A DNA stretch of 32,434 nt from Candidatus Zixiibacteriota bacterium (lineage in GTDB: Bacteria > Zixibacteria > MSB-5A5 > CAIYYT01): contig JBECKX010000008.1 in assembly GCA_040235515.1 (NCBI GenBank), positions 1 through 32,434 of the forward strand, read 5' to 3'. Of the stretch, positions 22,703-27,320 are shown one piece after another. Below the pieces are notes generated by a model. The model was not told the origin of the DNA and made no database searches. It saw only the letters and a list, made by a program, of their open reading frames with translations. Position 1 is the stretch's first letter. Every line of letters begins with the position of its first letter. Made by a program: the position numbers and the translations under genes.

Positions 22703-24358
22703 ATGGGAGAGCTCATGGCAGCAGATGACTTGTCAAAAGCAGAGTTTCGGTTTAGGAAATCCTCAAGCGTAGGAATACCGCACGCAGAGCAGGATTCTAA
22801 GTTTCTCGACGCATGTTTCGTGAACAATGGGCTATTGGACATTGCGTTAGACACTAATGAACCCAAGATATTTCTGCATGGGAGGACGGGTTCCGGTAAG
22901 ACAGCTCTAATCAAGAAAATCAACTCTATGAAGCCAAAGCAAGTGATCTTGATAAGACCGGAGACATTGGCGCTGAACCATATATCAAATAGCACCATTA
23001 TCAAGTTTTTTGAAGAACTAGAAGTTCGCATGGATTTATTCTACAAGCTCCTTTGGAGACACACGCTTGCGGTGGAAATACTCAAGAAAAAGTATGAGAT
23101 CACTACGCCGAAGGCCCGCAACAGTTGGCTTATGTGGCTAAAGGACAGATTCGATAAGGATGAAGGGAAAAACGCTGCGCTTGAGTATATACAGAAATTT
23201 GGAGATAGTTTTTGGAAGGAGACAGATGAGAGGATTGCTGAAATAACCACTACTATAGAGCGCGAGCTTAGTTCACAAATAGGTTCGGATCTGAGTGGAA
23301 TTATGTCGGCTGGTGCGAAAGGGCGCAGTCAGATTAGCGAACAGCAAAGAGCGGAGATAAAGAAACGTGGTCAAGAAGTCGTAAGCAAAGTAAAAATCAG
23401 GGAGCTAGATCAGATTATCCGGATGTTGGACGAGGATATATTAACTGATGACCAGCATCCTTACTATGTACTAATTGATGGTTTAGATGAGGATTGGGTC
23501 GAGGATCGTCTGCGTTATAAGCTTATAAAGGCTCTTTTAGAAGCTGCTAGGGATTTCTGTCGAATCAAGAATGCCAAAGTGATTGTTGCTATAAGAAGAG
23601 ACTTAATGGAAAGGGTGTTTCGATCGACACGTCACGATGGACAGCAGGAAGAAAAGTACATGTCCTTGTGCATTGATCTCCGGTGGAAACGCAATGATCT
23701 AATAGATCTCATCGACAGGAGAATTAGATTCCTTATTCAAGAGCAATACACGTCCAAAGAAGTAGGCTTGAAACAGCTCTTGCCGACGAAAATAAGCAAG
23801 CAAAACCCCGAGAAGTACATCTTGGATCGGACTTTATTGCGTCCAAGGGATGCCATAGTGTTCATAAATGAGTGCATCAATCTGTGTGAAGGTAAGCAGA
23901 AGTTCACGGCCACCATGATTCAGCAAGCGGAACGAGCGTATTCAAAGAACCGGCTGAACTCCGTCTGTGACGAATGGTATGCAGACTATCCGGAGTTGTC
24001 CCGTTTCGCATTTCTGATTTTGCACGGAAGATCGCATTCGTTCTACTTGCACGAGATTTCGGAGAACGAGTTTGACTCTATGTGTATTGAACTAGCTTCG
24101 AGTCCGCCGCCTGACTGCAAGTTCTTATGGAGTCTTCTCGACAGAAGATTTGATGGGAATATATCTCTCAAACTTTGTGTCTCCAATATATTTGCGGTGT
24201 TCTTCAAGACTGGCCTGGTCGGACTTCGCTTAACGTCAAAGGACAACTATATCTGGTCATTCAACGAAGAATCGATTGTCTCTTCCGATGAGATTGAACC
24301 TAATACGCGCGTGATGATACACCACGCGTTTCGAAATGCTCTGAGTGTAGCAGACTAG
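22703..24358 (+). CDS. P-loop ATPase, Sll1717/FunZ-like family
   Basis: Walker A GRTGSGKT, Walker B VLIDGLDEDW, YILDRTLLRPRDAIVF, C-terminal GLVG...IHHAFRNAL; AT-richer than the flanks. Confidence 0.8.
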   Translation: MGELMAADDLSKAEFRFRKSSSVGIPHAEQDSKFLDACFVNNGLLDIALDTNEPKIFLHGRTGSGKTALIKKINSMKPKQVILIRPETLALNHISNSTIIKFFEELEVRMDLFYKLLWRHTLAVEILKKKYEITTPKARNSWLMWLKDRFDKDEGKNAALEYIQKFGDSFWKETDERIAEITTTIERELSSQIGSDLSGIMSAGAKGRSQISEQQRAEIKKRGQEVVSKVKIRELDQIIRMLDEDILTDDQHPYYVLIDGLDEDWVEDRLRYKLIKALLEAARDFCRIKNAKVIVAIRRDLMERVFRSTRHDGQQEEKYMSLCIDLRWKRNDLIDLIDRRIRFLIQEQYTSKEVGLKQLLPTKISKQNPEKYILDRTLLRPRDAIVFINECINLCEGKQKFTATMIQQAERAYSKNRLNSVCDEWYADYPELSRFAFLILHGRSHSFYLHEISENEFDSMCIELASSPPPDCKFLWSLLDRRFDGNISLKLCVSNIFAVFFKTGLVGLRLTSKDNYIWSFNEESIVSSDEIEPNTRVMIHHAFRNALSVAD

Positions 24359-24448: not shown

Positions 24449-25059
24449 TCCGCCGGCTGCGCGTGGCCATAGATCACTCACGAGCGTGCCCGTGACCTTG
24501 GTCGCGGTCTCGGGCCAACCATACTCCATTCAGCAGTCCGCGACCAAGGTCGCGGCCACACGCCACATTTTCGTACTGCCAGTAAGAAAAACGCCGCGCA
24601 CCGCCTGCTCGCCGTGGCGAGAGGACGTACGCGGCGCACAAACTGTGGATTTCGGATTCCTTAGGAACCACGGCAAAGTCATCCCTCGCCCCGGGCGCAG
24701 CATGCTGCGCCCCTACAAAGCCCCCCTACTTCTTCATTCCCTCCAGCAGCTTCCTGATCTCCGCCGGGTGCGCGTGACCCTAGATCACTCCACGAGTCGT
24801 GCCCGCGACCTTGGTCGCGGTCTCAAGACACCCATTCTCCATTCAGCAGTCCGCGACCAAGGTCGCGGCCACACGCCGCGATTTGGTACTACCAGTAAAA
24901 GAAACGCCGCGCACGAGGACGTACGCGGCGCACAAATTGTGGATTTCGGATTCCTTAGGAACCACGGCAAAGTCATCCCTCGCCCCGGGCGCAGCATGCT
25001 GCGCCCCTACAAAGCCCCCCTACTTCTTCAATCCCTCCAGCAGCTTCTTGATCTCCGCC
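24449..25059. repeat. Imperfect tandem duplication (311 bp + 294 bp) of a REP-rich unit
   Basis: Copy 1 24449-24759, copy 2 24760-25053; TCCGCC at all three junctions (24449, 24760, 25054). Confidence 0.92.
24897..24930 (-). terminator. Probable terminator of the fibre gene
   Basis: Minus strand CGCCGCG-tacgtcctcgtg-CGCGGCG followed by TTTCTTTT. Confidence 0.55.
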
Positions 25060-27320
25060 AGCTCGTTGCGTAGCTCGTCATTGGATGCCGCCAGCTCGCG
25101 GTTCTGACGCGCCAACTCCTTGATCGCCGCCAGCGCAATGCCGGAAGGGTCAATCGTCGAGATCGTCTTGTCGTTGACGCCGAGCCCGAACACCGAACTG
25201 AAATCCTGCGCCGTCGGCCCGATATGCTTGATGCTCTGACCCTCGACCTTGTAATTCCACTCCGTGATCAGCAACTGCTCGATCTTTGCCAGCAGCTCTT
25301 CGCCATCAACCGCAGTGAAGTTCTCCTTCAGGTTGGCGTCCGAAGCATTCGTCCAGGTGCCACCCGAGGTCAACAACGCACCCGATGAATGCACGATCGG
25401 ATCGAGTGTGCCGCCTACACTCGACTGAAGCGTGAGCGAGGAAATCGTCCCGGAGAAATCATCGCAACCCAGCGAAACTCGCGAGGAAGCGGAATCTACA
25501 GAACATTCCAAATCTACGTTCGAGGAACTGCTTTCACGACGCAGTGTATTGGAGCACTTGGTCTTGTTGGCCTTCTCTTTTGCCTTCATCAGCGCCGGCA
25601 AGAGCAGAGCATCGGTGAACTCAAACGTCGTTTCCGTTACAACGGAATCTGGTGTCGTCGTTACCACCACCCTGTTCCTGTCAGCTCCGGTACCTTTGGT
25701 TTTGATCGCAACAGAACACGTAGTAGGCAGACACCGATCTTCGATTTCACTGTCTGGTATATTGTCGCCATCGCTGTCGGTGTCGATATAGCGGCGCGTC
25801 GAGTCGGCCGTGCAGACCATCTGCATTCCACTCGACGGTCCCGAAGGCGCAAGCGTCGAAGCTCGCGATTGCAACACTGAACCGCCCGGTAACGCGCCAC
25901 CGACCAGATACAGTTCCGGGATGCCGTCACCATCCAAATCGGTGTCGCACTGAACTATGGCGGACGAATCATTGGATGTTGATACTACCCGGTTTCGATC
26001 CGCCCCCGTACCCTTCGTCTTAATCGCCACCGAACAGGTTCCGGGCATCAGGAGCTGGTCAATCTCTTGTTCCGGTACTCCATCCCCGTCGCTGTCCATG
26101 TCGAGGTAGTGACGCGTCGAGTCGCTGGAAACGACCGTGATAACCCGGTTCTTATCCGCCCCGGTACCCTTGGTCTTGATTGCCATCGAGCACGTGCCCG
26201 GCATCAACCGCTGATCCAGTTCAGCCTCCGGAACACCGTCCCCATCGCTGTCGCAGTCGATATAGCGTCGCACCGAATCTGCTGTACAGATATCAAGTGT
26301 TCCGTTTTCAGAGCCCTGCGAGCCAATTCCGCTACACCGAGAGGAGAGAATCGTACCGCCGGGAATCACTCCGCCTACCAACAGCAGGTCAGGTATGCCG
26401 TCATCGTCGAGGTCACCGTCGCAGCGTATTACCGCCGAAGTGTCATTGGTGGACGACACTACCCTGTTCTTATCAGCACCCGTACCCTTCGTTTTGATTG
26501 CCACGGAGCATTGCCCCGGCGATGCCAGCGCATGTACGGAATTCTCGGGAACACCGTCGTCATCGTCATCAGAATCCAGCGTCATCCCGGCAGCTGTGTC
26601 CGAGGCCATCCTCGCAACCAGGTCCGGGACGCCATCACCATCATCATCTCCCCCGGTCGTCACTGCGGAAAGGCCATTGAGAGTAAGGAGATCTATATAC
26701 TTGTGCCCCGGCGTCGTCGGATGATAGTCTAGCTTCAAAGATGACGAGTCAGCATCGCCAGAGGCACTGATCACCTGATCGCCACTGGACTGCACCCGGA
26801 ATGTTCCTCCCGTCCCGTGAGCCTGAAGACCGACTGTGCCTCCACCGCCACCTCCACCTCCACCGCTGCCATCGAGCAGTAGCTCCCCCGGGCCGGTCTG
26901 GAGATCGCCATCGACCCTGATTGCGGTTGATGCGTACGGTACACTAACCAGACGCACCCGTGGAGTGATCGCCTGACCAGCTACGACGACTTCAAGGTAA
27001 CGCTCACCGACTGGTGGCAATCCGCCGCTCGGAGGCGAGGCGAACAGGTCAGCACTGAGCGCCACCGATGACCCAAGCAGAACGTTAAACAAACCATCGC
27101 TAACACTAACCGAGGGATGACTCTCCGACCAGAGCAAAGTTCCACCCGTGGAAGCATCATACACTCTGAATTCCATCGACACAGTTCCGTTGATTGGATT
27201 ATCACTCGCATCGAGAAGCTGGCCCTGGTGATGAATCTCGGTCGGCGCCGCGGCGGCGACCCCGGACATGCACATAAGCAACACGATAAGGACAGAACAC
27301 ACTGCAAGCATGCGCAACAT
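25020..27320 (-). CDS. Secreted tail-fibre-like protein with DxDxDG repeats and C-terminal peptidase S74 intramolecular chaperone
   Basis: Signal peptide (AAA|A); N-terminal HQGQLLD...MEFRVYD...GGTLLWSE...DGLFNVLLG domain; 7 DxDxDGxP[DE]-type loops; SDANLKENF...WNYK...HIGPTAQDF...ALAAIKEL plus coiled coil. Confidence 0.85.
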   Translation of the reverse strand: MLRMLAVCSVLIVLLMCMSGVAAAAPTEIHHQGQLLDASDNPINGTVSMEFRVYDASTGGTLLWSESHPSVSVSDGLFNVLLGSSVALSADLFASPPSGGLPPVGERYLEVVVAGQAITPRVRLVSVPYASTAIRVDGDLQTGPGELLLDGSGGGGGGGGGTVGLQAHGTGGTFRVQSSGDQVISASGDADSSSLKLDYHPTTPGHKYIDLLTLNGLSAVTTGGDDDGDGVPDLVARMASDTAAGMTLDSDDDDDGVPENSVHALASPGQCSVAIKTKGTGADKNRVVSSTNDTSAVIRCDGDLDDDGIPDLLLVGGVIPGGTILSSRCSGIGSQGSENGTLDICTADSVRRYIDCDSDGDGVPEAELDQRLMPGTCSMAIKTKGTGADKNRVITVVSSDSTRHYLDMDSDGDGVPEQEIDQLLMPGTCSVAIKTKGTGADRNRVVSTSNDSSAIVQCDTDLDGDGIPELYLVGGALPGGSVLQSRASTLAPSGPSSGMQMVCTADSTRRYIDTDSDGDNIPDSEIEDRCLPTTCSVAIKTKGTGADRNRVVVTTTPDSVVTETTFEFTDALLLPALMKAKEKANKTKCSNTLRRESSSSNVDLECSVDSASSRVSLGCDDFSGTISSLTLQSSVGGTLDPIVHSSGALLTSGGTWTNASDANLKENFTAVDGEELLAKIEQLLITEWNYKVEGQSIKHIGPTAQDFSSVFGLGVNDKTISTIDPSGIALAAIKELARQNRELAASNDELRNELAEIKKLLEGLKK

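Follow-up and report, generated by a model that had tools for sequence, protein, structure and literature searches.

A prepilin-like 23-residue word in a bacterial S74 fibre protein and its recurrence among unrelated secreted proteins

Short segments common to unrelated old folds have been described as an "ancient peptide vocabulary" or as "bridging themes", their likeness being remote and at profile level. In Rickettsia, palindromic elements form short foreign coding repeats in unrelated genes, and in bait regions and mimicry peptides are displayed for recognition. The tracts described here, which we call words, differ from the ancient vocabulary in being near-exact, patchy and concentrated in secreted proteins, and from the Rickettsia elements in that the protein and not the DNA is conserved and that the sources are other bacterial proteins. 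With one copy in its genome and codons that follow its host gene, the word at the centre of this study does not show the DNA-level conservation of a mobile repeat. No self-contained palindrome covers it among the repeats listed, and it is not a coding palindromic or mobile DNA repeat.

Mosaic adhesive trimer (MAT) fibres of Bdellovibrio have an S74 subgroup, for which an SDxxxK motif has been defined (PMC10769870). The fibre studied here resembles that subgroup in a likely signal peptide, an S74 domain with SDxxxK and many paralogues per genome, and may have its beta-rich N-terminal domain, to which it gives a match below threshold. Their mosaicism is described at the scale of domains and tips, and the parts of that paper available to us mention no short peptides in common with pilins, HU or RHS proteins. 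At the DNA level, SPDIR swaps in 3 to ~100 bp of heterologous, also foreign, DNA at microhomologies (bioRxiv 10.1101/2023.11.22.568220), a size range that fits the tracts described below and the 69-bp patch at this locus. It is very rare, produces highly variable patches and does not predict that the same peptides and alleles recur across phyla; as to DNA identity with a donor, synonymous sites are here near saturation and this genome holds no donor. We did not find a cross-phylum peptide vocabulary in the literature, and the one reported here matches no known system in a literature coverage that stopped short of most subscription papers and of bioRxiv supplements.

The pilin word within the S74 fibre gene

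The window, the whole 32,434-nucleotide stretch of DNA that was analysed, comes from a Candidatus Zixiibacteriota bacterium and carries at 25020..27320 (minus strand) a 766-aa fibre gene, P0001, recognised from the open reading frame list and from Pfam and NCBIfam matches and flanked on one side by dnaK (identified by its sequence) and on the other by a gene for a P-loop NTPase. The protein runs from a signal peptide through a MAT-like N-terminal domain and acidic beta repeats with shared words to S74 and a coiled coil. The likely signal peptide (aa 1-24; 27249..27320, minus strand) was read from the hydrophobic N-terminus, not by a predictor. The ~130-aa beta-rich MAT domain was matched below threshold and over aa 14-87 only (27060..27281, minus strand; Bdello_MAT_N, NF053851, E 7.9e-11, 42 bits against a curated cut-off of 60). 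The Peptidase_S74 intramolecular chaperone (PF13884, aa 660-711; 25188..25343, minus strand; Pfam E 6.7e-11) is present with its SDxxxK motif at S660-K665, and the C-terminal coiled coil is helix 725-765 of an AlphaFold2 model. Judged from these features, P0001 would work like a MAT-type S74 fibre, to which it corresponds in part. Its close homologues are entries named Zixibacteria, Ignavibacteriales or "bacterium".

Within the acidic repeats, a Lys/Thr/Gly-rich 14-mer (family D2) that RHS carriers have as well occurs in four minus-strand copies: aa 274-287 (26460..26501), aa 380-393 (26142..26183; identified by shared 8-mers), aa 432-445 (25986..26027) and aa 538-551 (25668..25709), the last two identified both as repeats and by shared 8-mers. 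Residues 379-393 are identical at 15 of 15 positions to a tract in an RHS protein (L093), and a further shared tract (aa 473-485; 25866..25904, minus strand) includes two 8-mers present in RHS carriers. Within this genome the vocabulary is confined to P0001 and one single 8-mer elsewhere. Other S74/MAT-like paralogues in the genome (G000 contigs C28, C62, C84, C163, C191 and C192) lack it.

The earlier note on this DNA had reported a pilin-like 23-mer deep inside the fibre protein, and both its place and its sequence were confirmed: 25539..25607 (minus strand) translates as LLLPALMKAKEKANKTKCSNTLR, aa 572-594 of the 766-aa ORF. The proposed likeness to the segment that follows the N-methylation helix of DUF1559-type prepilins was borne out by identity at 21 of 23 positions to prepilin-type proteins of one Planctomycetota family (ungapped BLOSUM62 score 108, self score 114). 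The word is single-copy in the genome (profile E 6e-14), where the runner-up among six-frame ORFs scores 40. One public contig (run X2, 25527-25696) spans the word and its upstream junction with zero differences, from a run that may be the source of the assembly.

The scaffold repeat has a P..CS motif in which the Cys lies 13 residues after the Pro in four copies (P258, P364, P416 and P522), as against 14 residues after P575 in the 23-mer, as noted previously. The suggested near-register with the repeat thus stands for the spacing, which agrees within one residue, and fails for the sequence, which shows two or three identities in register. Against the rest of P0001 the 23-mer scores at best 12, a value matched by 64% of 1000 shuffles. 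A drifted repeat or a chance likeness would account for the spacing and for the lack of a Pfam match to the bare 23-mer. Set against the score of 108 with pilins, the profile E-value and the absence of gradual drift from the repeat in homologues, drift from the scaffold is ruled out and the probability of this explanation as a whole is negligible. The 23-mer is foreign to the scaffold repeat, as had been claimed, and so withstands the refutation test set for that claim.

P0001 is not a pilin; it has neither a methylation motif nor any other pilin part here. PF07963 matches 13 places in the genome, none of them on P0001 or elsewhere on this contig, in agreement with the reported absence of a prepilin cleavage site. 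PF07596 (DUF1559) did not match the whole protein, an 81-aa region or the 23-mer at E<=1, nor anything in the genome, where the control likewise matched nowhere. The search of the bare 23-mer against family profiles, recommended earlier, found nothing in Pfam at E<=1 or in NCBIfam at E<=0.02, and the DNA-level donor that had been sought in the genome was not found, its own prepilins scoring 34 at most. We found no match to the word in the PDB, and an Atlas search with aa 250-640 of P0001 gave no usable match. A look for expression listed no RNA data set.

The word lies in a conserved module of ~70 aa (approximately aa 552-620; 25461..25667, minus strand), defined by fibre homologues and with strands in the model. 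The flank-defined modules of fibre homologues all contain the word (33/33, in a set partly found through the word), indicating that the slot is not a point of cassette exchange, contrary to an earlier suggestion that it might hold different cassettes. The view that the word is written into the repeat likewise finds no support: it sits in its own module, which is mobile within fibres, from 79 to 460 aa upstream of S74 across homologues and present twice in two of them. The 23-mer had also been described as helical-looking. AlphaFold2 (aa 488-766, 14 sequences, monomer) instead models it as a two-strand hairpin (575-585 and 588-597) with local pLDDT of 80-88 and an overall pTM of 0.36, and a pilin model places the same word inside helix 10-61 (pLDDT 84). 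If these predictions hold, the word is a beta-hairpin in the fibre and a helix in the pilin, a natural chameleon of ~20 residues.

Since the fibre slot is both invariant and structured, structure may suffice to explain the word there. Old and rare borrowings, one capture per family, could have been kept as a useful basic hairpin or linker with no outside recognition; the constant occupancy of the modules, the well-scored hairpin and the erosion of the N-terminal six residues in many carriers all fit this. We regard it as decidedly unlikely, as it leaves unexplained the same tract in 22 protein groups, its repeats in tiny proteins and a derived allele in six groups.

The matching Planctomycetota prepilin family

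Scanning GTDB genomes with a degenerate DNA pattern built on the 11 core residues of the word gave 38 loci, of which 12 are prepilins, 24 are carriers other than pilins and 2 are probably chance matches. Ten of the 12 prepilin loci belong to one family, in which the whole word stands directly after the methylation helix and both PF07963 and PF07596 match. Of 7984 candidates scored in a profile search, 133 proteins passed at E<=0.1; the prepilin motif was present in 77 of the 120 matches listed, and 62 of these 77 have the word in one of three versions that are nearly identical. Within one class of Planctomycetota, whose genomes are mostly of 5-12 Mb, the family occurs in 15 of 18 genomes, and all word matches inspected in this class were pilin-type. 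In a 151-genome sample of the phylum of G287, the two matches at E<=1e-7 were an RHS carrier and an ordinary pilin (35 bits).

The pilin family could itself have received the word, reversing the direction of borrowing, as the word varies unusually little in a family whose overall identity is ~50% (and whose members were found with the word). This is very improbable: the word occupies a place after the methylation helix homologous with that of ordinary DUF1559 sequences, grades into them, and is present in most genomes of the class. We consider it probable that the fibre 23-mer and the pilin segment share an origin.

Among eight short pilin contigs, five break off 14-29 nt past the stop codon, which gives them a transcript-like look, and the family may be highly expressed. 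Fibres contain a second tract that resembles this family, agreeing with its C-terminal motif at 12 of 13 positions (L053 against L098; also P0128). The matching pilin was absent from all five carrier genomes checked.

Unrelated carriers and their shared vocabulary

Of the 24 non-pilin pattern loci, 12 encode RHS proteins, 7 are S74-fibre loci (with an overlap between two of them), 2 encode surface proteins of Planctomycetota and the other 3 encode small or tube-like proteins. A metagenome scan added 33 loci; carriers among them were acidic lipoproteins from a bacterium of low GC, a protein resembling autotransporters in which the word stands twice, and an ORF that is possibly eukaryotic. A HMMER search of 1.84 billion representatives gave 153 matches at E<=0.001, a crude rule classing ~70 of the 150 listed as non-pilin. 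When the word was masked, the proteins fell into 31 clusters, of which six were dropped (two pilin, three likely chance, one fragment) and three merged, leaving 22 carrier groups and 118 proteins, fibres without the word included. These groups include RHS proteins, tube- and Hcp-like proteins, lipoproteins, autotransporter-like proteins and tiny proteins with tandem copies. A signal-like N-terminus was seen in 72 of 90 carriers with a start Met (crude hydrophobicity rule). In the phylum of the window the word is patchy, occurring in 10 of 285 genomes and always in fibres.

We observed several distinct settings of the word. In the RHS loci L009, L026, L035, L042 and L087 it is usually the last in a variable word-rich linker before DUF6531. 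The signal-peptide, contractile-tail-tube-like proteins L023:3435-4382, L088:2952-3929, P0120 and P0133 have it mid-protein, and L023 and L108 may genuinely belong to the tube/Hcp families as distant members. Low-GC-bacterium acidic lipoproteins (L083:884-3742 and L103:2169-4421) are full of the same words in AT-rich codons. On GC-rich contigs, L085 (1829-4312 and 4168-5103, minus strand) and L094, which may be eukaryotic, two ORFs contain the pilin word together with a VgrG-like tract and Cys-rich repeats. The small signal-peptide proteins P0031, P0032, P0137, P0138, P0249 and L081 consist almost only of one to three word copies and another shared tract; the first four hold hardly more than two or three copies and have no fibre fold that would need the word. 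Such proteins could be peptide precursors or polyvalent ligands. One candidate carrier, L174 (G297:C55), was ruled out as a frameshifted second copy of EF-Tu.

With the pilin word present in all 22 groups by construction, the groups share 332 exact 8-mers, corresponding to 54 tracts, compared with 0-4 in 20 local shuffles; some of these tracts, acidic motifs of FG-GAP-like type, may be nothing unusual. The first carrier set had given 138 shared 7-mers against a shuffle mean of 2.5. Eight other tracts connect three groups, and direct tracts between fibres and RHS proteins reach 19 of 22 identical residues.

The sources shown by our tools cover a minority of the 54 tracts. They include HU (L040 aa 748-782, E 4e-9) and EF-Tu (L011 aa 891-912, E 3e-4), with further tracts matching VgrG (L085 and P0140), Hcp and tube models. 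Some other tracts may be cold-shock, RRM or needle-like. A single donor class for all words was ruled out, since the HU tract reaches no more than 63% identity with the HU proteins of the pilin class. HU, EF-Tu, tube and Hcp are abundant proteins, and the pilin probably is. Tract ends are ragged, with various carriers reaching further into the pilin sequence on either side, and other tracts span up to 35 codons. Short high-identity matches of this type can lead to misannotation of such proteins as pilin, HU, Hcp or tail proteins.

Codons, alleles and possible routes of borrowing

The GC3 of the word tracks that of its host gene over a range of 0.15 to 0.98 (rho 0.73, n=68; 0.43 in 48 carrier copies). 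Synonymous identity of the word across families is 0.46-0.48, against an expected 0.39-0.41, and that of other tracts 43% against 39% in a set that retains some partial pilin-word tracts. Recent DNA transfer between families was not convincingly detected, with a top z of ~4 among 1843 pairs (mean 0.54, SD 1.09). Between 26 fibre pairs, pS is 0.78 in the word core, 0.74 in the flanks and 0.70 in S74, and pN is 0.045, 0.34 and 0.15, the core pN being biased low because the loci were selected by the search pattern. At the 11 word positions outside that pattern, pN is 0.27 against 0.34 in the flanks, a modest extra conservation.

At position 20, where Ser replaces the Asn of the pilin in 18 carrier copies, every one of the 18 uses AGY, which a single step separates from an Asn codon; this favours descent from a copied DNA segment with Asn at that place. 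In another word, eight Ser codons in fibres are TCN and four in Planctomycetota surface proteins are AGY (S74 serines being nearly uniform), which fits an independent origin.

Carriers additionally share an allele with Val9 and Gly13. The two residues are linked (15 sequences with both, 8 and 9 with one, 101 with neither, the rows being dependent and including about ten misfiled pilins), and the double allele occurs in 6 unrelated carrier groups and in none of 65 pilins, nor in any pilin found in the 18 genomes of the class; weakly scoring pilins elsewhere could escape such a search. Several other carrier alleles mirror pilin alleles of the Planctomycetota class. On trees built without the word, Val9+Gly13 must have changed at least 3 times among RHS proteins and 2-3 times among fibres, and close sisters switch alleles. 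The RHS tree (29 rows) has 11 allele changes, against a minimum of 4 and 13.2 when shuffled, and the fibre tree (36 modules, only 68 columns) has 11, against 11.6 when shuffled. The existence of Val9-only and Gly13-only intermediates means that point mutation could yield this allele pattern. The allele series and sister pairs offer a natural test bed for distinguishing transfer from convergence in long exact peptide matches.

Part of this evidence suits convergence at the protein level, in which a widespread reader would select point mutations towards the same peptides with no DNA transfer: synonymous sites are near saturation across families, one word uses different Ser codon classes by family, allele changes are parallel with single-step intermediates and, in fibres, no more clustered than in shuffles, and neither vehicle nor reverse transcriptase was found. 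Identity over 17-23 residues would however have to arise repeatedly for dozens of tracts, two of them from one pilin family; the uniform AGY codons at the Asn/Ser site speak against it, and a single reader could hardly drive a peptide that is predicted to be a helix in one setting and a hairpin in another. We consider convergence unlikely.

The switching of alleles between close sisters, and the abundance of the proteins identified as sources, would also be compatible with a dedicated, for instance RNA-templated, writing system that inserts and refreshes words in target genes. The machinery searched for was absent: reverse transcriptase RVT_1 (PF00078) had no match in this genome, which is 100% complete by markers, and the control was positive in 3 of 14. 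Within 3.5-4 kb, no neighbour gene family was common to the carrier groups among the clusters listed, all of which fell within one family except a three-locus cluster (L023, L032 and L108). The near-confinement of the vocabulary to one gene of this genome and the absence of the matching pilin from the five carrier genomes also count against such a system, which we judge improbable. The word had no match in viral contigs or phages, and plasmids gave one weak, ordinary DUF1559 match. That no recent transfer, vehicle or reverse transcriptase was found keeps convergence, structural retention and a dedicated writer as rivals.

The explanation that we favour is that tracts of 8-35 codons from abundant genes would enter secreted-protein genes by microhomology-guided, SPDIR-like short-patch recombination, that carriers would re-exchange tracts and alleles among themselves with the resident word as anchor, and that protein-level selection would favour an exact match to a community-wide version, as mimic, bait or like-with-like contact. 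At this locus, the 23-mer probably arrived as a short patch of DNA and is likely kept because a partner outside the cell recognises the exact peptide. We favour this combination of capture, exchange and outside selection because the word is nearly identical to pilins and unlike its own scaffold; because 22 carrier groups remain when it is masked, with a large set of shared 8-mers; because other tracts match HU, EF-Tu, VgrG, Hcp and tube proteins and a second one matches the pilin; because of the Ser20 codons, the ragged ends, the host-following GC3 and the scattered Val9+Gly13; and because tiny proteins repeat the word with no fibre fold and pilin contigs look transcript-like. It is weakened by the lack of a recent transfer or a vehicle and by the mixed Ser codon classes, and we put the combination as a whole at slightly under an even chance. 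Recurrent patch exchange as the route is evenly poised, and recognition, not mere structure, is somewhat favoured as the reason why the word is kept.

The recurrence of the word probably stems from a mechanism, so far undescribed, by which short peptides are borrowed and kept. More tentatively, and at a probability that we place below even, the tracts would form a common and continually refreshed dictionary of exact peptides in the secreted proteins of many phyla and perhaps of a eukaryote, a joint claim of abundant-protein sources, peptide-scale exchange or writing and a shared recognition system. If true, this would mean that protein evolution has a unit smaller than the domain, one that crosses phyla with its DNA similarity erased and its amino-acid identity kept, and would point to a candidate peptide reader in sediment, soil and freshwater communities.

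Beside the fibre gene, the P-loop NTPase gene (551 aa, 22703-24358, plus strand; weak KAP/NPHP3_N/AAA_16 matches) lies in a stretch of lower GC (0.44-0.47), on the strand opposite to its neighbours, and may have been acquired. Between it and the fibre gene, two REP-like tandem units of ~310 bp (24449-25059), with 25-nt inverted repeats and a 20-nt perfect palindrome, overlap the 3' end of the fibre gene.
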